Sequence record: OP555982.1
Direction: 5' to 3' (one strand)
Source of the DNA: Escherichia phage vB_EcoM-UFV11
Length of the DNA stretch: 64,000 nucleotides
Shown: positions 4,327 through 57,401 of the stretch, piece after piece
Position numbering within the stretch: the stretch's first letter is position 1
Layout: each line of letters opens with the position of its first letter
Translations under genes and position numbers: made by a program
Notes under the pieces: model-generated
Database searches by the model: none
The model's input: the letters and a program-made list of their open reading frames with translations, nothing else
Told to the model about the DNA's origin: nothing

Positions 4327-4344
4327 AAAGGCCCGAAGGCCTTT
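4327..4344 (-). terminator. hairpin terminator AAAGGCC-UUCG-GGCCUUU
   Basis: perfect stem with UUCG tetraloop on minus strand just downstream of 4344 gene. Confidence 0.5.
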
Positions 4345-5819: not shown

Positions 5820-6089
5820 TTAATTGAACAGTGGAGCGATGCGTTTCAGAAGAGTAGCAGCACCTTTAGCGAATTTTACATCATGAAAAACAGTTTCTTC
5901 TTCCGTTACAACACGAGCTTTAATGTTTTCACAATCCCAATTTTTGCGAACAATCTTCAAAAGCTGCAGTAAATCTTTACATTCAACAATATCGATAACA
6001 CATCCACGAGAATCTTCCATTATCGCACGATAACCGTAAGCCATACCATAATCGTTGAAAGATTGCTCGATGATAATTAAGTTTTCCAT
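5820..6089 (-). CDS. hypothetical protein
   Basis: ORF track starts at TTG; ATG at 6089 preceded by conserved leader TTGGAGAATAAAATG. Confidence 0.5.
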   Translation of the reverse strand: MENLIIIEQSFNDYGMAYGYRAIMEDSRGCVIDIVECKDLLQLLKIVRKNWDCENIKARVVTEEETVFHDVKFAKGAATLLKRIAPLFN

Positions 6090-6186
6090 TTTATTCTCCA
6101 AGTTATTTTCTGTATCAGTAGTTGATATTGATATAGTACCATAATCAACTACTGATGTATATAGTTTTATGAAAAAATTTTAAACT

Positions 6187-14472: not shown

Positions 14473-14814
14473 TCAATCGCAAGATGTAGATGAACAACTA
14501 GAATCACAAGAACTTCCACATGAATCGCCCGTCCATACATGAACAGGAACATTAGTATCATATGAATCAGAACTAGACTGTGTATTCTGTGCATTAGATG
14601 ATGTAGTAGGTGTTGACCAGCGCCAAGGATTTTTATAATATTCTTGGGCTTCTTCATAAGTCATAGTAACTGCTTCTACTGTTCCATCTCCCATATAAAC
14701 ATATTCAACTACAGTTAAAGGAAGATAGTCATTTGAAATAGGAACTACACCTTCTCCGGGAGTTGTAGAGAAAAAATCTGTAAAGAAATTTTTAAACCAA
14801 TTAAAGATAAACAT
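14473..14814 (-). CDS. hypothetical protein with Ser/Cys-rich C-terminal tail
   Basis: 113-aa ORF ending [18 protein letters not shown]. Confidence 0.5.
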
Positions 14815-15020
14815 TACAAAAAGCCTCTTTTGAATTCGACTTGTTTATCGCCATAATCATATCGAATCTCTGCGTTAAATTCAACAGAACCATCTGCGTA
14901 CATCATAAATGAATGCACAACAACTTCTGTAGACCATGGTTGCAATTCATATTTCTTCATTACATGCCGTGAAATGATAATATCTAAATCTTCATTTGGT
15001 TTAATCCAACGATTTAACAT
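14814..15020 (-). CDS. hypothetical protein
   Basis: 68-aa ORF, SD AGAGGAG, downstream of early promoter. Confidence 0.5.
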   Translation of the reverse strand: MLNRWIKPNEDLDIIISRHVMKKYELQPWSTEVVVHSFMMYADGSVEFNAEIRYDYGDKQVEFKRGFL

Positions 15021-15046
15021 AGTGCTCTCCTCTATAAGATAATTCT

Positions 15047-15076
15047 ATTATACCATACTCATTTTGGAAAGTAAAC
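15047..15076 (-). promoter_or_regulatory. T4-type early promoter
   Basis: minus strand GTTTACTTTCCAAAATGAGTATGGTATAAT. Confidence 0.6.
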
Positions 15077-15090
15077 CGGTAAAATGAAAA

Positions 15091-15112
15091 AAGGACTCCC
15101 GAAGGAGTCCTT
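15091..15112 (-). terminator. hairpin terminator GGACUCC-UUCG-GGAGUCC plus U-run
   Basis: perfect 7-bp stem with UUCG loop after soc. Confidence 0.6.
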
Positions 15113-15118
15113 GAATTA

Positions 15119-15355
15119 TTAACCACCTATTTCTGTGGGTGTAAACATTGCAGCATTCTTAGTTTTCCAGTCAGCTGCATCAGAAACTACAGTAGAATAT
15201 GCCGCCTTTTCAGAAGGAAAGGTCTGATAATGAGAATCTGCAATACGATGCTCGTTAGAATAAATTTCAAACGGAACAGAAACTTCCATACCTTTAACTT
15301 CTTTGCCTTCACCTGTTGGATGAGTAAAGGTCTTGATGTTAACGAAACCACCCAT
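15119..15355 (-). CDS. soc: small outer capsid protein Soc
   Basis: 78-aa ORF with HYQTFPSEKAAYSTV motif; late promoter upstream. Confidence 0.8.
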   Translation of the reverse strand: MGGFVNIKTFTHPTGEGKEVKGMEVSVPFEIYSNEHRIADSHYQTFPSEKAAYSTVVSDAADWKTKNAAMFTPTEIGG

Positions 15356-15386
15356 AATAAACTCCTTTATTGTTTAATTACAGGTG

Positions 15387-15394
15387 TATTTATA
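15387..15394 (-). promoter_or_regulatory. T4 late promoter TATAAATA
   Basis: exact TATAAATA on minus strand ~32 nt upstream of soc ATG. Confidence 0.6.
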
Positions 15395-15536
15395 ACTTAC
15401 AATTTAGCGGCTTTCCAGAGTTGTTCAATAATCTCTTGGTCTATTTCTTTAGTTATTTCATTACGTAATAAAGCAGTAAGGGCTTTCGCCCTTTTCTTAT
15501 TCAACTTTTTGAGTTGGCGTTTATTTAAACGGGACA

Positions 15537-16055
15537 TTAATAACCTCGGTCTTGACGTGCGAAATTTTCAGCATTTTTCAGATAATAAAGTTTAAAGATT
15601 TCTTCTGCTGTAAGACCAAGACCCTGGAACATATTCAGAACGAAATGAAGAATATCAATCATTTCAAATTTAATTTCTAACTGGTCTTGTGGAGACAAAT
15701 CAGTAATCAGAGTTTCACGACGTTCACCATGCTGCGACTTCCAAGGTTTCCATACAGCAGATGCGTCTTTTTCACCATTACTCATACCACCAAGAGAAGT
15801 CAGAAGTTCACGGAATTCATCGTCAATATAATCTTTCTGATTACGCAACCAATCAACAACTTCACCGGCAGTAGCTAAGTCATCAGGATGACGATTATAT
15901 TCAGGTTTATCTTTAGCTAAACGAACCTGCAAAGATTTCTGCATATCAAGCATTACCTGCAGCGGGTCTTTTTCATCGCCGAGAATATCCCAATATTCAT
16001 TTTGAGCTTTATCAGCGCCTTCAATCAGTTGTGAACATTCGTTAAAGTAAGCCAT
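15537..16055 (-). CDS. 56: dCTPase/dUTPase gp56 (172 aa)
   Basis: ORF track begins at upstream GTG; ATG at 16053-16055 gives MAYFNECSQLIEGADKAQNEYWDILGD, T4 gp56-like. Confidence 0.85.
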   Translation of the reverse strand: MAYFNECSQLIEGADKAQNEYWDILGDEKDPLQVMLDMQKSLQVRLAKDKPEYNRHPDDLATAGEVVDWLRNQKDYIDDEFRELLTSLGGMSNGEKDASAVWKPWKSQHGERRETLITDLSPQDQLEIKFEMIDILHFVLNMFQGLGLTAEEIFKLYYLKNAENFARQDRGY

Positions 16056-20803: not shown

Positions 20804-21166
20804 TTAAAAGAATTTAAATTTTTTCTTTGACCTTTTATTAAATGCATCTTGTAGTTGCATTGTAATACATTTTTCTACATGAGGAGCTAACTCAGCTTTT
20901 CTTTCTTGGTCAAGAACAGCAAAGTCCATTACGACTTTTCCATCAACCCAATCTAATTTTGTCACATACACAATGTGTGTAGAACCGTCTTCTAGTTTAA
21001 TGACAATCTCCTGGATAACATTTTCCATGGCAGATTTAATTATCTTAAGAGATTCATTAAAAAGACGTTCTTTTCTTTCTTCTTCCCCCTCCGAAGAGGG
21101 GGATTCATCGATAATTTTTAGATCTAAATCTAAATCATCTTTATTCATTAAATTCTTCCATATCAC
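20804..21166 (-). CDS. 40: gp40-like protein
   Basis: 120-aa ORF between uvsX and 41. Confidence 0.55.
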   Translation of the reverse strand: MIWKNLMNKDDLDLDLKIIDESPSSEGEEERKERLFNESLKIIKSAMENVIQEIVIKLEDGSTHIVYVTKLDWVDGKVVMDFAVLDQERKAELAPHVEKCITMQLQDAFNKRSKKKFKFF

Positions 21167-22322: not shown

Positions 22323-22375
22323 TCATTTTTTCCATAGGCATCATTATATTTTCCTCACTGGTTAAAGATAAAGTA

Positions 22376-24782: not shown

Positions 24783-25019
24783 TCAAATACAAGTAGTAAT
24801 TACTCCAGTAGTGCTTACACAGGTATTACCTAATTGAACACCCAACGTTCCATTAGTATTCATATGAAGATTATCATCAATTTTTGTTGATACTTTACCA
24901 TTCATGTGAATAATAGTATTAGATTCAATCACATTCTGAGTGTCATTTTCAATATCAATAAATGGAACAGTTGCTAATGCAACTAAACACACTGCTAAAC
25001 AACCATAAACAATTTTCAT
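24783..25019 (-). CDS. hypothetical secreted/membrane protein
   Basis: ATG at 25019 after conserved leader GGAGAATAAAATG; N-terminal hydrophobic segment. Confidence 0.5.
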   Translation of the reverse strand: MKIVYGCLAVCLVALATVPFIDIENDTQNVIESNTIIHMNGKVSTKIDDNLHMNTNGTLGVQLGNTCVSTTGVITTCI

Positions 25020-25053
25020 TTTATTCTCCAAATCCGTATCAGTTGATAGTTGT

Positions 25054-25083
25054 ATAGTACCATGGAAGAACGGGGATGTAAAT
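25054..25083 (-). promoter_or_regulatory. T4-type early promoter with conserved leader
   Basis: minus strand ATTTACATCCCCGTTCTTCCATGGTACTAT; 42-bp leader identical to 52671-52712. Confidence 0.5.
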
Positions 25084-25170
25084 AGTTTTGTGAAAAAATT
25101 TTTAATGAATTTACAGGACCTAGAATCATCTATTTTTCCTAAGTATAGATTTATATTACTTGTATGAAAA

Positions 25171-27955: not shown

Positions 27956-27974
27956 AAGGGGCCGAAGCCCCTTT
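27956..27974 (-). terminator. hairpin GGGGC-UUCG-GCCCC
   Basis: UUCG tetraloop hairpin between upstream gene and gene 43. Confidence 0.45.
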
Positions 27975-30120: not shown

Positions 30121-30155
30121 AATTTCCTCATTCAAGTTTTAGTGTAAATTATAAA

Positions 30156-30169
30156 GGGCCGAAGCCCTC
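30156..30169 (-). terminator. hairpin AGGGC-UUCG-GCCCU
   Basis: UUCG hairpin downstream of gene 45. Confidence 0.45.
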
Positions 30170-30171
30170 TA

Positions 30172-30858
30172 TTAAAAATCGTGGGTAGAATCAGCTTCAA
30201 GAGCTACTACATAATTCGCGTGTTCACCTTCAAATTTAGCAGCACCTTGTTTACCTTTTGCCCAGAGCAGAAGTTTATAATTTCCTGGTTGCATTTTCAT
30301 ATTTGCCATATTGATAATGAAATTAAATGTATTTTCACCATCATAATCACCAAGAGTCAAAGAATATTTAACACGGGTCAGAGCAGAATCTTCTACTTTA
30401 TTAAAACCGTTAATTACGATTTTACCTTCTTTTACCGTGATAGCAATTGTATCAATCTGCAGACCACGAGATACACGCAACAGTTGTTGAAGGTCTTCAG
30501 CTTTAATTTCAGTAACAACAGATGCTACCGGGAATGGAATTGGTTTATTAGGAGCAACTACTGTACTCGGATCGGCTGCTGGCCAAAAAATTGTTGAACG
30601 GGCATCAGCAATTTTAATATTTCCATCTTCTGACTGGGAAATTTCTGCATCATCATTAACTAGAGACAGAATACCGAGAAAACCGTTCAAATCGTAAATT
30701 GCTACATCAAAATCAATAACGTCAGAAATATTTGCTTCCGCATAAGTTGTACCATTAACTGCGCGAGTCATAATAAATTGACCGGATTTAAGCATAATAC
30801 CAGAGTTAATAGTAGCGAAATTTTTAAGCAGAGCAGTAGTATCTTTAGACAGTTTCAT
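30172..30858 (-). CDS. 45: sliding clamp gp45 (228 aa)
   Basis: 228-aa ORF MKLSKDTTALLKNFATINSGI. Confidence 0.93.
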   Translation of the reverse strand: MKLSKDTTALLKNFATINSGIMLKSGQFIMTRAVNGTTYAEANISDVIDFDVAIYDLNGFLGILSLVNDDAEISQSEDGNIKIADARSTIFWPAADPSTVVAPNKPIPFPVASVVTEIKAEDLQQLLRVSRGLQIDTIAITVKEGKIVINGFNKVEDSALTRVKYSLTLGDYDGENTFNFIINMANMKMQPGNYKLLLWAKGKQGAAKFEGEHANYVVALEADSTHDF

Positions 30859-31514: not shown

Positions 31515-31522
31515 TATAAATA
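31515..31522 (+). promoter_or_regulatory. T4 late promoter TATAAATA (plus strand)
   Basis: exact TATAAATA ~34 nt upstream of HNH gene ATG. Confidence 0.5.
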
Positions 31523-35568: not shown

Positions 35569-35576
35569 ATAAAGCT

Positions 35577-35594
35577 AAAGGGCCGAAGCCCTTT
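35577..35594 (-). terminator. hairpin AAAGGGC-UUCG-GCCCUUU
   Basis: UUCG hairpin immediately after a-gt stop. Confidence 0.5.
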
Positions 35595-36795
35595 ATTTTG
35601 TAATAATGTCAAACTGCTCTTTAAAGCAGAAGCTTGAATCTTGGTGCTGATACAAAAATTCATAAGCTTTTTCGCGTTCACGGTCATAAAGAGTTCGGTC
35701 AGATGACAGTTCTTTAATACGTTCAAATGTTGATTCCATGTCATTTTCATCAAACCAAATGATACCGCTATCATGCGAGGTCAAAGGAGTATTATCAACA
35801 CGGAATTTTAAATTTTCGCCTGTAGATTTCCAAAATACCGGAATTGTTCCACATGCACCAAGCTCGAGATGAGTATATTCTAAAGAACGTTGTAGATATT
35901 TTTTGTCCAACTTACTCAGCTGATAACCAAATCCGGATTTACTCATGCGTTCAAGCATTTCGCTATTTACATAACGGTCAAGAATTTGCGTTGGCAAATT
36001 AGGAGCAATTTTAATTTGGTCTACTTGATGAAGACGATAATACTCGTATGGAATTCCTTTTTCTTTAATAGGAATGAACGCTGGAGAACGTTCCAGACCT
36101 TCCATAATAGTACTTAGTCCTGCAGGTTTAAGATGTTTTTCATGAAAATCAAACATCTGATAAAAACCTTTCCACGTAGTAGTACGACCAATCCAACGAT
36201 TGATATTCATGTTAATTTCAGAAACATCTTTCCAGTAGGTTGATCGAACCTTTGCAATATCCATCGGAGGCTGAAAGTTATATACTGTCGGTGCTTCTTC
36301 AATATCATCAAACAGAGAAACTGTTTCAGGATACCATTCTTTCATCAGAACTTTATTAAAATCGCCATTATCAGAATGGCTAAAAATAACATCAGCTCGA
36401 CGAACAGTTTCTTCTAATCCCAAATTTCGACGCAAAGAAAGAGAAGAATGGTCATGTTGATAAACTACAACACGAACAGAAGGTTTAATGTTATCAATAA
36501 TTTTTTTATAGTTATTAATAGTGTCTTCTTCAACTGAAGTAGCAGGAACTGAATTGATAATTAGAATATCACAATCATTTACCAGCTTAAGTGTTTTATC
36601 GTATTCTTTTGCCAATAAAACCGGAATTGAAAATGATTTATAATCATGCGCGCAATTACGAGTAAATGATTTATCTTTAGCATAAACCAAAGTTACTTCA
36701 TGACCATTTTTAATAAACCAATCACGTTGCTCAAGAGAAAATTTAGTTACACCACAACCTTCAAGACCTCGAGCCATAAAAATACATACTTTCAT
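35593..36795 (-). CDS. a-gt: DNA alpha-glucosyltransferase (400 aa)
   Basis: 400-aa ORF matching recalled T4 alpha-gt. Confidence 0.88.
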   Translation of the reverse strand: MKVCIFMARGLEGCGVTKFSLEQRDWFIKNGHEVTLVYAKDKSFTRNCAHDYKSFSIPVLLAKEYDKTLKLVNDCDILIINSVPATSVEEDTINNYKKIIDNIKPSVRVVVYQHDHSSLSLRRNLGLEETVRRADVIFSHSDNGDFNKVLMKEWYPETVSLFDDIEEAPTVYNFQPPMDIAKVRSTYWKDVSEINMNINRWIGRTTTWKGFYQMFDFHEKHLKPAGLSTIMEGLERSPAFIPIKEKGIPYEYYRLHQVDQIKIAPNLPTQILDRYVNSEMLERMSKSGFGYQLSKLDKKYLQRSLEYTHLELGACGTIPVFWKSTGENLKFRVDNTPLTSHDSGIIWFDENDMESTFERIKELSSDRTLYDREREKAYEFLYQHQDSSFCFKEQFDIITK

Positions 36796-36845: not shown

Positions 36846-36865
36846 ATAGGAGCCGAAGCTCCTAT
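36846..36865 (-). terminator. hairpin GGAGC-UUCG-GCUCC
   Basis: UUCG hairpin overlapping stop of small ORF. Confidence 0.4.
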
Positions 36866-39214: not shown

Positions 39215-39230
39215 AAGGGCCGAAGCCCTT
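39215..39230 (-). terminator. hairpin AAGGGC-UUCG-GCCCUU plus U-run
   Basis: UUCG hairpin followed by T-run on minus strand. Confidence 0.55.
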
Positions 39231-50708: not shown

Positions 50709-51236
50709 TTATGCGAGTACCGTCTTTAACCGTTCTTCAAACTTCCGAAGAGTATTCTGGCGTTCAGCTCTTTGCTTTTTGTAAGTTTCAATACGCTCTG
50801 AAATGAGAGTGTATCGTTCATTTACTGATTCTTTCATAAAATCAGGAATTTCACGAGAAGCTTTAATCTCGTCAAATTTATCAATAACAGCTTGCTCTTC
50901 AGCAATTAAGTTATCATACATCAAAATATCTTTCTTGATGAACTCAATATCTTCTTGAGTTACACGAGATAATTTAAATGCTTTATCCTTTTTGTACTGT
51001 TCGTTAGTATCACGAGACCAGTGTAATGTACGATTTTTATTCGTATTCTTATAAATTTCTACAATACCAATATCATCAATAATAACGATCCAATTCCAAC
51101 GGGATTTGTAAATTTGTCCTCCATCAACTGTGATTTCACCTCCGATTGAGATGTCATTAAAGAACTTGCTTTGTGCTTCTGATTTAAATTTACCATCGTT
51201 GTAATTTACCAAGTTGAAAATATCTTTAGCGTTCAT
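50709..51236 (-). CDS. hypothetical protein
   Basis: ATG at 51236 downstream of promoter; ORF-track start is inside the promoter leader. Confidence 0.5.
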   Translation of the reverse strand: MNAKDIFNLVNYNDGKFKSEAQSKFFNDISIGGEITVDGGQIYKSRWNWIVIIDDIGIVEIYKNTNKNRTLHWSRDTNEQYKKDKAFKLSRVTQEDIEFIKKDILMYDNLIAEEQAVIDKFDEIKASREIPDFMKESVNERYTLISERIETYKKQRAERQNTLRKFEERLKTVLA

Positions 51237-51265
51237 TTTCTGTTCCTCCGTAGTTGATAGTTGTA

Positions 51266-51295
51266 TAGTACCACAGAGGAACAGTCTTGTAAACA
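51266..51295 (-). promoter_or_regulatory. T4-type early promoter
   Basis: minus strand GTTTACAAGACTGTTCCTCTGTGGTACTAT. Confidence 0.5.
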
Positions 51296-51700: not shown

Positions 51701-52669
51701 TTATTTCAGAAGAGTAACCTCAGCGATTTCTTCCCAACCGTTTTTGTCGGTCATAATAAAGTCAGCAAGATAAAGAGCAGTACGCAGTGAAACATTGCGT
51801 AAACGATTAACATTGACTTTCATCCATGATAATGCTTTATAAGTTTCTTCATCAGAAAGACCGCGCTTTTGCATCATGTCAGTTGAAAGAATAACATCTT
51901 CAACCCTGACCATAATTTCTTCATTAGTGTGAACACCCAAATCCAAATAAACTGAGCGGGACACTAATGCTTGTAAATGTGGAGCAAGTTTAGTACCACG
52001 GTCTAATTCGCGGTCAATGTCAACGTTTGTGATAAAAACAATCGTTCCTTTAAATTCAAACTCACGCTCAATGCCTTTTTCTTCTAAGTAAGAAGATGCA
52101 GTGCTCCAGCAGACTTTACGGGTCTCTCCAGTGTCCAGAGCAGCTTTCAGAAGATTAAGAATGTCCATATCAGAGAAAACATCCACATCATCAATCAAAA
52201 GGACAGAATTCTCTTCACGATTATTCCAAAGCTGCTCATAAAGACCAATACCAGAGATTTTACCATTAATGCTTTTATATTCAATGTATCCAATATCATT
52301 TGCTTTATTTAAAGCTTTATCTAAAGAATACGTTTTACCAATACCCGCCGCACCAGAGATAATTAATGAACGAATGTTTCCGTTAATAATACCATTCGTC
52401 ATCATTCCCATAACATTAAATCTTTTATTAATGCGGGTTTTCATATCTTCATATGATTCTTTAACTTCTTCAACTTTTACACCATCATATGAAATGTCTG
52501 ATTTGTAAACCCAAACACCGCGACGTTTACCGTCAATTTCAACAAAAACTTTACCATCTCCTTGTGCATCTACTGGGGCATTATCAGGGAACCACTCACC
52601 TAAGAGTTCAAAAGTTCCAGAGATTTCTTTGCCAAAGTAGATACCCTTATTGATAGTTACAGTTTTCAT
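51701..52669 (-). CDS. P-loop NTPase (AAA-like)
   Basis: ATG at 52669 after leader GGAGAATAAAATG; Walker A GAAGIGKT, Walker B VLLIDDVD. Confidence 0.6.
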   Translation of the reverse strand: MKTVTINKGIYFGKEISGTFELLGEWFPDNAPVDAQGDGKVFVEIDGKRRGVWVYKSDISYDGVKVEEVKESYEDMKTRINKRFNVMGMMTNGIINGNIRSLIISGAAGIGKTYSLDKALNKANDIGYIEYKSINGKISGIGLYEQLWNNREENSVLLIDDVDVFSDMDILNLLKAALDTGETRKVCWSTASSYLEEKGIEREFEFKGTIVFITNVDIDRELDRGTKLAPHLQALVSRSVYLDLGVHTNEEIMVRVEDVILSTDMMQKRGLSDEETYKALSWMKVNVNRLRNVSLRTALYLADFIMTDKNGWEEIAEVTLLK

Positions 52670-52703
52670 TTTATTCTCCAAATCCGTATCAGTTGATAGT
52701 TGT

Positions 52704-52733
52704 ATAGTACCATAAAGCTTTATGCTTGTAAAC
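52704..52733 (-). promoter_or_regulatory. T4-type early promoter with conserved leader
   Basis: minus strand GTTTACAAGCATAAAGCTTTATGGTACTAT. Confidence 0.55.
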
Positions 52734-52764
52734 TGTTTTGTGAAAAAATTTTTGAAATAAAAAA

Positions 52765-52782
52765 GGGAGCCCGAAGGCTCCC
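52765..52782 (-). terminator. hairpin GGGAGCC-UUCG-GGCUCCC plus U-run
   Basis: 7-bp stem, UUCG loop, TTTTTT after it on minus strand. Confidence 0.6.
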
Positions 52783-52784
52783 TA

Positions 52785-55511: not shown

Positions 55512-55784
55512 TTAAATGACGTTTTCAATAAAATTCTGAAGCTTTGTGTGAGCATCAACCATGATTTTCATTTCTTCTTTGGCGAAAGCTGTACCTCTTT
55601 CCCGAGAAGAACACTCATAGTCAGAAACTGCATTAGCATATTCTTCAATTAGTTTCATTAAAAACATCTGCTTTTCAGTTTTCATTATTCCACCTAATCC
55701 CCGAGAAGAACACTCATAGTCAGAAACTGCATTAGCATATTCTTCAATTAGTTTCATTAAAAACATCTGCTTTTCAGTTTTCAT
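55512..55784 (-). CDS. hypothetical protein with internal 33-aa tandem duplication
   Basis: 90-aa ORF; MKTEKQMFLMKLIEEYANAVSDYECSSR occurs twice. Confidence 0.5.
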   Translation of the reverse strand: MKTEKQMFLMKLIEEYANAVSDYECSSRGLGGIMKTEKQMFLMKLIEEYANAVSDYECSSRERGTAFAKEEMKIMVDAHTKLQNFIENVI

Positions 55785-55798
55785 TATTCCACCTAATC
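55601..55798 (-). repeat. perfect 99-bp tandem direct duplication (2 copies)
   Basis: 55601-55699 identical to 55700-55798; each copy carries SD GGTGGA plus ATG. Confidence 0.85.
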
Positions 55799-55970: not shown

Positions 55971-56174
55971 TTAAACTCTCGTATTGTGATCGATAATTTC
56001 ATCAAGAAACATATCTAAAGCTTCCACAGCATTATCAACTTTAGCTTCAAGTTCATCAATACCTTTATTTGCAATGCCTGACGAAAACCAAGCAAAGTCG
56101 CTAAGTTCCTCATCTGCTTTACGAATTAAAGCTACCAATTCCTTAATTTTATCCGCTTGTTCGATACTAATCAT
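55971..56174 (-). CDS. hypothetical protein
   Basis: ATG at 56174 with SD GGTGGA, overlaps upstream stop. Confidence 0.45.
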   Translation of the reverse strand: MISIEQADKIKELVALIRKADEELSDFAWFSSGIANKGIDELEAKVDNAVEALDMFLDEIIDHNTRV

Positions 56175-56362
56175 TATTCCACCACATATGAAAGAGAGAA
56201 TATTGCACATGCCATGTGAGTTGCAACTTCATCACACATATTATAACGTTTCTTAAGAAGTTCTACAAGTTTTTCACTAGTAACTTCATCCATGTTGACG
56301 AAAAAATCACCATTAATGATGACGTAGATATTTCCTTCTTGATTGAGTGCTTCAATTTTCAT
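56174..56362 (-). CDS. hypothetical protein
   Basis: ATG at 56362 with SD GAGGAG; ORF-track start lies within promoter. Confidence 0.45.
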
Positions 56363-56390: not shown

Positions 56391-56420
56391 ATAGTATAAC
56401 AGCTCAAACGGAAAGTAAAC
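56391..56420 (-). promoter_or_regulatory. T4-type early promoter
   Basis: minus strand GTTTACTTTCCGTTTGAGCTGTTATACTAT. Confidence 0.5.
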
Positions 56421-56435
56421 CGGTAAAATGAAAAA

Positions 56436-56453
56436 AGTCTCCCGAAGGAGACT
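56436..56453 (-). terminator. hairpin AGUCUCC-UUCG-GGAGACU plus U-run
   Basis: 7-bp stem with UUCG loop; same cassette layout as 15047-15112. Confidence 0.6.
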
Positions 56454-56457
56454 AATG

Positions 56458-56844
56458 TTATTCGAGGGAAAGAAGATACTTACTCTGGTAAAACATCCCA
56501 GTAATATCATCTATCGTGCTTTGGATGGCTGGAGGCATTTCTTTATAAATGCTGTTAGATTGGTCTAGTATGCGATCAATCATTTTAATTGTGTCGGTAG
56601 GAAGTTTACTGGCATCTGGAATTGAAGGCGTGTATTTTCTACCAGAATACCCCAAATATTGCTCACCAAATTTATCAATCAAATCTGGCAACTCGGAAAA
56701 AATAAAATCGTATGCTTTGTGTCTAGCATAACTTTTAGTTTCAAAATGTGCAGAATGAAAATAAGCTTGTGCAGCCATTAATAAACCTAAGTATTCATCT
56801 GCCTTTGAAGGTTTTCCACTTTGTGAAAAGTCGCTGAATTTCAT
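56458..56844 (-). CDS. hypothetical protein (rI.-1 position)
   Basis: 128-aa ORF translationally coupled to rI. Confidence 0.55.
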
Positions 56845-57359: not shown

Positions 57360-57401
57360 ATATACCCCTTTAGTTAGATAAACCTATTTATAACTTTTGC
57401 A

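Follow-up and report, generated by a model that had tools for sequence, protein, structure and literature searches.

A putative terminator/early-promoter cassette at two gene junctions in the early region of the T4-like phage vB_EcoM-UFV11

The stretch of 64,000 nucleotides of Escherichia phage vB_EcoM-UFV11 analyzed here in its full length (sequence record OP555982.1; hereafter, the window) carries, at 15047–15112 and again at 56391–56453, a hairpin with a UUCG loop, a run of T and promoter-like elements, packed between two genes. An initial annotation, made from the letters alone, described these sites as recurrent terminator-promoter cassettes with hairpins under selection. The locus therefore raises the questions of whether this reading is correct, how far the likeness between the two sites extends, and whether the arrangement is new. 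As argued below, each junction is very probably a composite terminator/early-promoter cassette of a T4-type phage, acting at both the RNA and the DNA levels.

Layout and genomic context of the two junctions

By its sequence, the window covers the first 64 kb of a Tequatrovirus genome. A 3-kb stretch around the locus is 100% identical to Escherichia phage vB_EcoM-UFV09 (Straboviridae, Tequatrovirus) and 96–98% identical to many T4-like phages, with about 750 phage records matching. The G+C content is about 34–35%, the GC skew is negative throughout, and essentially all the genes, as judged by the open reading frames and the T4 annotation, are on the minus strand. This part of the genome, from rIIA towards ipIII/e, is the early region as classically defined in T4. 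Junction 1 is the gap between soc and mrh.2, and junction 2 is the gap between rI.-1 and mobD.5. In the deposited record of vB_EcoM-UFV11, a spurious 41-aa ORF spans cassette 1, and neither a terminator nor a promoter is annotated there. The features of the two junctions are as follows.

15119–15355, minus strand: soc, small outer capsid protein, 78 aa (ORF and soc annotation of relatives); the gene ended by cassette 1
15091–15112, minus strand: cassette 1 hairpin, 9-bp stem with UUCG loop, AAGGACUCC-UUCG-GGAGUCCUU (RNA fold; conserved with compensatory changes in four genera)
15087–15092, minus strand: cassette 1 T/U-run, TTTTTT and then C-ATTTT, at about -52 to -47 of the downstream promoter
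15071–15076, minus strand: cassette 1 -35 element GTTTAC, of the T4 early-promoter type (pattern match)
15047–15052, minus strand: cassette 1 -10 element TATAAT, with TGG before it (extended -10); its T4 counterpart is annotated 'early promoter 14.95'
14814–15020, minus strand: mrh.2 (ORF and T4 annotation), the first gene that the cassette 1 promoter would drive; Shine-Dalgarno sequence GAGGAG at 15027–15032
56458–56844, minus strand: rI.-1, 128 aa (ORF and T4 annotation); the gene ended by cassette 2
56436–56453, minus strand: cassette 2 hairpin, 7-bp stem, AGUCUCC-UUCG-GGAGACU, then UUUUU; identical in T4
56415–56420, minus strand: cassette 2 -35 element GTTTAC (pattern match)
56391–56396, minus strand: cassette 2 -10 element TACTAT (N18); ttaTACTAT here versus tggTACTAT in T4
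56174–56362, minus strand: mobD.5 homologue, with its ATG at 56362; the first gene that the cassette 2 promoter would drive
15066–15093 and 56410–56437, minus strand: 28-nt exact repeat CTTTTTTCATTTTACCGGTTTACTTTCC (family D20; repeat finder, 100% identity)

Read along the minus strand, the soc stop codon (15119–15121) is followed after 6 nt by the hairpin AAGGACTCC-TTCG-GGAGTCCTT (15112–15091), by TTTT-C-ATTTTACCG, by GTTTAC (15076–15071), by 18 nt ending in TGG and by TATAAT (15052–15047), and the junction ends with GAGGAG and the mrh.2 ATG at 15020. At junction 2, the rI.-1 stop codon (56458–56460) is followed after 4 nt by the hairpin AGTCTCC-TTCG-GGAGACT (56453–56436), TTTTT-C-ATTTTACCG, GTTTAC (56420–56415), 18 nt and TACTAT (56396–56391), with GAGGAG and the mobD.5 ATG at 56362 closing the series. 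Each cassette, on the same strand as the gene before it, fills the gap from a stop codon to the Shine-Dalgarno sequence and ATG of the next gene.

The initial annotation had placed both junctions at the right coordinates, and the layout it had claimed to be common to them is indeed shared: stop codon, C(UUCG)G hairpin, T-run, GTTTAC, 18 nt, -10 element, Shine-Dalgarno sequence and ATG are found at both. Its promoter formula, GTTTAC-N17/18-TATAAT, holds for junction 1 but not for junction 2, where the -10 element is TACTAT (N18) or, as an alternative, TATACT at N16. The spacer, which it had called near-identical, proved to be an exact repeat over 28 nt (15066–15093 = 56410–56437).

In both cassettes the loop reads CC-UUCG-GG, a C:G pair closing the UUCG at the top of a Watson-Crick stem. 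Folding gave -15.1 kcal/mol (z = -4.3) for the hairpin of cassette 1 and -10.8 kcal/mol (z = -4.7) for that of cassette 2; both are the minimum-free-energy fold, and 0 of 200 shuffles were as stable. As expected by sequence for intrinsic terminators, both combine a G+C-rich stem (9 bp and 7 bp) with 5–6 T directly after it. The pattern of a T4 early promoter, GTTTAC at -36 to -31 and TAnnnT 18 nt downstream, is likewise present at both junctions. Bidirectional termination was rejected, since the plus-strand reading, with its CGAA loop, has no T-run after the stem at either junction. A search of the whole window against Rfam, at gathering thresholds, returned no family match.

The extended -10 element (TGn) is seen at junction 1 as TGG-TATAAT, while junction 2 reads TTA-TACTAT, compared with TGG-TACTAT in T4 and other relatives; the junction 2 promoter of vB_EcoM-UFV11 has lost the TG that T4 carries. 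With this loss and a non-consensus TACTAT, the junction 2 promoter may be weak.

Hairpin pairing and the UUCG hairpins of the window

Beyond the 28-nt repeat, the hairpin tops (CTCC-TTCG-GGAG) are also identical at both junctions. The stems differ at two pairs and, in agreement with the claim that they differ while staying complementary, both differences are compensated (A-U to U-A, and G-C to A-U). Across the 43 nt of homology, the two cassettes are identical except at two bases of the 3' arm, which have to match the altered 5' arm. On sequence grounds, this difference within one genome makes a fair, if small, argument for covariation.

A broader basis was provided by the junction downstream from soc, which was collected from T4, T2, NBG2, fPS-2, RB69, JK42, JS10, PSD2002, ESCO10 and RZ, as well as from 16 IMG/VR contigs. 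In every junction collected, soc is followed by the UUCG hairpin, the loop being UCCG in one of them (NBG2), which is still of the UNCG type. Although both of its arms have changed, the hairpin persists in four genera (Tequatro-, Mosig-, Dhaka- and Gaprivervirus), and five stem variants were found: GGACUCC/GGAGUCC; GGAAUCC/GGAUUCC; GGAAUCC/GGGUUCC, with a wobble pair; AAGGAACC/GGUUCCUU; and AGGGAACC/GGUUCCCU. In a loop-anchored alignment of 14 distinct sequences from these four genera, 95.2% of the cells pair and both-sided change is seen in four of the nine pairs, although some of these 'double changes' are one base pair lost from both arms, which is still compensated. The covariation score was 0.359; shuffled alignments scored 0.109 ± 0.029, with none of 500 as high, and sliding the partner columns by 1–3 gave at most 0.087. 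Judging from this alignment, the soc hairpin is clearly maintained for pairing, which bears out the earlier proposal of selection on the hairpin and supplies, at this site, compensatory changes across related phages. The hairpin of cassette 2 is identical in T4.

Both parts of the cassette exceed chance in the window. There are seven exact matches to GTTTAC-N16-19-TATAAT, where 0.07 would be expected, and all of them are on the minus strand. A generic sigma-70 promoter scan stayed at background (98 sites versus 88 expected, and 84 versus 84) and was uninformative; only the T4-specific GTTTAC pattern is significant among the promoter scans. Regarding the hairpins, UUCG is the commonest tetraloop, and 10 strong UUCG hairpins (stem of at least 6 bp) were observed on the minus strand; 200 dinucleotide-preserving shuffles yielded 0.84 on average and never more than 3. 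They are listed below with their positions in T4.

4327–4344, minus strand: UUCG hairpin, T4 position 39.1/39; MotA-box-like motif downstream
15091–15112, minus strand: UUCG hairpin, T4 position soc/mrh.2 (cassette 1); at least 5 T and a GTTTAC promoter downstream
21084–21103, minus strand: UUCG hairpin, T4 position inside gene 40; within the coding region
27956–27973, minus strand: UUCG hairpin, T4 position regA/43
30151–30172, minus strand: UUCG hairpin, T4 position 45/44
35576–35595, minus strand: UUCG hairpin, T4 position a-gt/47.1; MotA-box-like motif downstream
36846–36865, minus strand: UUCG hairpin, T4 position a-gt.2/mobB; MotA-box-like motif downstream
39215–39230, minus strand: UUCG hairpin, T4 position 55.3 (inside the gene); at least 5 T downstream
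52764–52783, minus strand: UUCG hairpin, T4 position nrdC.11/nrdC.10; at least 5 T and a GTTTAC promoter downstream
56436–56453, minus strand: UUCG hairpin, T4 position rI.-1/mobD.5 (cassette 2); at least 5 T and a GTTTAC promoter downstream

All 10 are at the same position in T4, where eight lie 8–18 nt after the upstream gene and the remaining two map within genes 40 and 55.3. A run of at least 5 T directly after the stem was found in only four (15091, 39215, 52764 and 56436), and a GTTTAC early promoter downstream in only three (15091, 52764 and 56436). Downstream of 4327, 35576 and 36846 is the motif GCTTTA-N11-12-TATAAT/TAAAAT, which fits the consensus of MotA-dependent middle promoters, (a/t)(a/t)(a/t)TGCTTtA-N11-13-TAtaAT, quoted in PMC1524935. 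Half of the hairpins (5/10) are closed by G-C instead of C-G (GC-UUCG-GC).

Where the initial annotation had counted at least nine hairpins 'of this type', the number of UUCG hairpins stands, at ten, but the type does not, as only three of them precede an early promoter and four have a U-run. The possibility that all ten belong to one cassette type was rejected, their downstream sequences falling into at least three classes. The 'recurrent cassette' is two near-identical copies plus one looser copy, which is located at the nrdC.11/nrdC.10 junction and has a hairpin folding at -17.3 kcal/mol.

52704–52783, minus strand: third, looser cassette; AGGGAGCC-UUCG-GGCUCCCU, TTTTT, a 30-nt A/T-rich UP-like stretch, GTTTAC, N18 and TACTAT

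About 20 early-type promoters are present in the window, about 40–60 nt upstream of T4 genes, and most of them have no hairpin. By BLAST, the sequence was found at only two places per genome. An exact-pattern scan of IMG/VR for CATTTTACCGGTTTAC gave 14 stretches, about half of which are chance matches in unrelated GC-rich contigs; in the others, the contigs are T4-like and the match is one of these two junctions. The spacer is thus not a mobile motif of wide distribution.

Known counterparts in T4 and related phages

In the T4 record M30001 of GenBank, 'early promoter 14.95' is annotated exactly at the junction 1 promoter, and the records of fPS-2 and NBG2 carry a 'terminator' and a 'predicted early promoter' at junction 1. 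GTTTAC at -36 to -31 is the T4 early -35 consensus (PMC1524935), and the early promoters of T4 combine -35, TGn, -10 and UP elements (PMC2988021). The T4 early consensus of Wilkens & Rueger is taken here in the form in which PMC2988021 and PMC1524935 cite it. The junction 1 promoter matches T4 P_E 14.95 exactly from GTTTAC (-36) to TATAAT (-7), including the TGG before the -10 element, and differs from it in three clustered bases just upstream of the -35 element (TTACC here versus TAAAT in T4). Unlike most early promoters in the window, it has a T-run upstream of the -35 element, without an A-rich proximal UP subsite.

T4 mRNA is where the UUCG tetraloop was discovered, in 1988; the loop is exceptionally stable (PMC4371310). 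The hairpins of both cassettes share with the C(UUCG)G hairpins of T4 the same loop, the C:G closing pair, the genome family and the intercistronic site, and nothing of substance sets them apart. Those hairpins of T4 mRNA were reportedly described by Tuerk et al. in PNAS in 1988.

The composite also has a published counterpart, the PeSL (promoter-early stem-loop). PeSL stem-loops were effective terminators when tested in RB49/phi1 (Arbiol et al. 2010, PMC2839356), and PeSL copies recombine to mini-circles, as detected by inverse PCR in RB49/phi1 only (PMC2839356). PeSLs have also been reported from the PST/T4 pair, where their promoter consensus is TTTACW-N17-TAYWAT (Comeau et al. 2014, PMC4122927). 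As in PeSLs, the stem-loop of our cassettes is intergenic and lies just upstream of a sigma-70-type early promoter, which is followed by a Shine-Dalgarno sequence and a start codon. The arrangement is also repeated within one genome, here as the 28-nt repeat and identical hairpin tops at two sites with a looser third copy, and both cassettes fit the PST/T4 consensus (PMC4122927). Junction 1 also lies at a mosaic boundary, and junction 2 does not. The RB49/phi1 stems, however, are G-run/C-run and the -35 element there is TTGACA, whereas here GTTTAC takes that place, and the stems, of mixed sequence, carry a UUCG loop; furthermore, a stem-loop accompanies only three of the window's early promoters, which number about 20.

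Another arrangement with a terminator and the next promoter in one short intergenic stretch, and with the terminator T-tract inside the promoter footprint, is that of the bacterial promoter-coupled terminators (Fletcher et al. 2026, bioRxiv 10.64898/2026.08.19.745784). In those systems, termination takes place about 10 bp ahead of the transcription start, the -35 element is formed by the DNA of the stem-loop and the T-tract is the spacer, whereas here the hairpin is at -72 to -51, the T-run at -52 to -47, and a separate -35 element lies downstream. Membership in that architecture was rejected, as the spacing differs by about 35 nt, and any sharing between terminator and promoter here would be limited to the position of the UP element.

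Taken one by one, the hairpin, the promoter and the composite are already known, from the T4 UUCG hairpins, from the T4 early promoters, including P_E 14.95, and from the PeSLs in T4/PST, respectively. The initial annotation had recognized neither textbook T4 regulation nor the published name PeSL. Our search of the T4 Term-seq, ONT-cappable-seq and RNA-seq literature found no transcript-end data mentioning either junction.

Proposed function, alternative explanations and late units

The reading of a terminator hairpin with a U-run followed by a promoter, put forward in the initial annotation, is supported by the anatomy of the junctions, by the annotation of relatives and by the covariation. 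In the mechanism that we propose, the C(UUCG)G-capped hairpin with its U-run, 4–6 nt past the stop codon, would work at the RNA level as a factor-independent terminator or attenuator and would also be a stable 3'-end cap for mRNA arriving from upstream. At the DNA level, the early promoter 10 nt beyond, made of GTTTAC at -36 to -31, an 18-nt gap and TATAAT or TACTAT at -12 to -7, would recruit unmodified host sigma-70 RNA polymerase right after infection and restart the downstream early genes (mrh.2-mrh.1-mrh... and mobD.5-mobD.4...). We infer termination at both hairpins, and its efficiency, from these elements, as well as transcription starts near 15040 and 56384. Given that the U-runs are short (5–6 U before a C), the sites may only attenuate.

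An explanation at the RNA level that would dispense with termination is that the hairpins are mainly protectors of RNA 3' ends or processing barriers (blocks to exonucleases, e.g., for the soc mRNA), while most polymerases read through. Such a role, which we consider possible although rather unlikely as the main one, agrees with the exceptional stability of UUCG loops (PMC4371310) and with the study of the soc mRNA 3' end as a discrete end (PMC3014915). Six of the 10 UUCG hairpins have no proper U-run and yet are equally conserved in T4; therefore, the UUCG hairpins here have a role that needs no U-tract. However, the 5–6 U directly after the stem are found precisely in cassettes 1 and 2 and in the hairpins at 52764 and 39215, and a promoter directly downstream makes most sense if transcription from upstream is largely stopped. 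The roles of protector and terminator are not exclusive.

The near-identity of the two cassettes calls for an explanation of its own. It could result from convergence on the T4 early promoter consensus, the two hairpins being unrelated. Among 17 early promoters of the window, mean pairwise identity is in fact as high as 17.7/30 over -36 to -7, and other pairs reach up to 28/30 (families D1–D6). Over -53 to -37, however, the mean falls to 7.1/17, while the pair formed by junctions 1 and 2 has 17/17, the best upstream match of 136 promoter pairs; the shared block thus reaches 17 nt upstream of -36, and the 12-nt hairpin tops are identical. Because of this 17/17 upstream identity, cassettes 1 and 2 are homologous copies and not two promoters of one class, and convergence is very improbable. 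Alternatively, the likeness may be kept at the DNA level by PeSL-type recombination linkers, ectopic gene conversion or module-swap crossovers, with the stem differences as edges of conversion tracts, an account that we regard as doubtful though worth weighing. The copies of the 28-nt exact repeat are 41 kb apart. The junction 2 spacer, CATTTTACCGG, does not vary among the relatives retrieved, whereas junction 1 has several alleles (CATTTAAATGG in T4 and fPS-2, CGTTTTTGCAG in T2, CATTTTATGG in NBG2, and the window type, CATTTTACCGG); among these, the window type alone coincides with junction 2. With 40-nt probes, about 139 records match the window-type allele and about 121 the T4 type; as both are common and the outgroup spacers resemble the window type (CGTTTTACTGG), plain ancestry could also account for the pattern. 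Identity to T4 is about 50–75% in soc and jumps to about 97% exactly at the junction 1 hairpin, a break that resembles the mosaic boundaries reported for PeSLs (PMC2839356 and PMC4122927), but no such break is seen at junction 2. Moreover, 28 nt is at the low end of homology for T4 recombination, for which the cited work gives patches under 50 bp (PMC2839356), and the other compensated changes, in Dhaka- and Gaprivervirus, are beyond the reach of conversion. Since conversion explains the identity of the sequences and not their function, it complements the composite cassette as the main explanation.

What the composite cassette may do for its neighborhood is suggested by the late promoters. An exact-match search for TATAAATA, the T4 late-promoter motif, found three sites in the window, against 10.6 expected, only two of them on the minus strand.

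15387–15394, minus strand: late-promoter motif TATAAATA upstream of soc, about 30 nt upstream of the soc ATG at 15355
57385–57392, minus strand: late-promoter motif TATAAATA upstream of rI.1-rI-rI.-1, about 27 nt upstream of the rI.1 ATG

Cassettes 1 and 2 stand exactly where the late units soc and rI.1-rI-rI.-1, respectively, come to an end. Therefore, the cassettes probably insulate the early genes from the embedded, co-directional late units while giving those genes an early start of their own, a proposal based on two cases and on exact motif matches.

The T-run may also have a place in the promoter. Over the 17 early promoters, the column profile is T-rich at -50 to -46 (9–11 of 17) and A-rich at -56 to -51 and at -44 to -40. 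Measured against the UP-element consensus that Estrem et al. are said to have established, this profile is UP-element-like. In cassettes 1 and 2, the terminator T-run, at -52 to -47, falls on the T-block, and the A-rich proximal block is absent (TTTTACCG).

A bolder reading, in which each cassette is a 'late-unit cap', requires three properties jointly: that the cassettes close both late units, that the T-run is at once U-tract and UP block, and that the copies are identical via ectopic conversion, with junction 2 as the donor and junction 1, 41 kb away, as the acceptor. Taken as a whole, this reading is tentative and unlikely; if true, it would be a natural case in which the copies of a dual-use terminator/promoter element evolve in concert. 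Late-unit capping, the coincidence of the T-run with the UP T-block and the hint of concerted evolution are the mildly new points of this analysis. Its components and the composite having been published, the finding opens no new question, and its main value is correct annotation: recognizing the cassette mends a record that carries a spurious 41-aa ORF in its place. For phage engineering, the hairpin and promoter would form a compact, portable insulator unit that could be reused. For the phage and its relatives, the cassettes define transcription units for many unnamed early genes and mark likely crossover points for module exchange among T4-like phages.

The soc allele and its boundary

The soc gene of vB_EcoM-UFV11 (15119-15355) has a DNA identity of only ~50-75% to that of T4 (15331-15573), and is similar to the 78-aa soc of RB69-type phages. 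On the mrh.2 flank, by contrast, identity with T4 is ~97%. This difference between the two sides indicates a probable module swap at soc, with the terminator hairpin (15091-15112) as the putative breakpoint. Furthermore, T4 carries segF upstream of soc, whereas vB_EcoM-UFV11 does not. The matching phage record, as annotated on deposition, has a 41-aa GTG-start ORF at 15001-15126 (minus strand), spanning the hairpin, the T-run and the early promoter of the cassette at the soc/mrh.2 junction; this ORF is almost certainly a gene-calling artefact.

UUCG hairpins without a U-run

Among the minus-strand UUCG hairpins that lack a U-run are the following:

4327-4344, minus strand, upstream of the gene 39 homologue
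35576-35595, minus strand, upstream of the 47.1 homologue
36846-36865, minus strand, upstream of the mobB homologue
21084-21103, minus strand, 8-bp hairpin UCCCCCUC-UUCG-GAGGGGGA, very stable (-16.7 kcal/mol)

Directly after each of the first three lies GCTTTA-N11-12-TATAAT/TAAAAT, which matches the MotA-dependent middle-promoter consensus, and these elements look like "stem-loop + middle promoter" composites, of the same type as PmSL of Vibrio phage nt-1. The fourth is located in the gene 40 homologue, within its coding sequence and ~50 nt past the uvsX stop, and its counterpart is kept in T4, at 22338. No Rfam matches were obtained at gathering thresholds on either strand of the whole window; in the nrdD region, where T4 has the I-TevII intron, no group I intron was detected in vB_EcoM-UFV11 by Rfam at the same thresholds.

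Late-promoter motifs and a tandem duplication

For TATAAATA, the late-promoter motif of T4, depletion is strong, with three sites in the whole window against 10.6 +/- 3.0 expected (at least three were counted in 100 of 100 shuffles):

15387-15394, minus strand
31515-31522, plus strand, antisense to early genes, near the 45.2/46 junction
57385-57392, minus strand

A tandem duplication of 99 nt was also recorded:

55593-55790, in a minus-strand ORF, perfect register, 97% identical

It is in frame within a 90-aa ORF (55512-55784, minus strand), in which 33 residues are repeated (MKTEKQMFLMKLIEEYANAVSDYECSSR...). Because the record of the near-identical vB_EcoM-UFV09 is offset by ~99 nt from the window between 17 kb and 56 kb, the duplication may be polymorphic among near-identical isolates.

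Repeated early-promoter regions

Further families of repeated early-promoter regions were found at:

6071-6184
25009-25105
51220-51293
52659-52755

The promoters upstream of imm.1 and nrdC.10 have ~55 nt in common (98% identity), a block that takes in the 5' leader and the start codon (TACTATACAACTATCAACTGATACGGATTTGGAGAATAAAATGAAAA), and they also share the UP-like block AAAAATTTTTTCACAAAAC. Those of rIIA.1 and nrdC.4 are identical at 28 of 30 positions over -36 to -7. Given these families, duplication or homogenisation of promoters is a general feature of the vB_EcoM-UFV11 genome.
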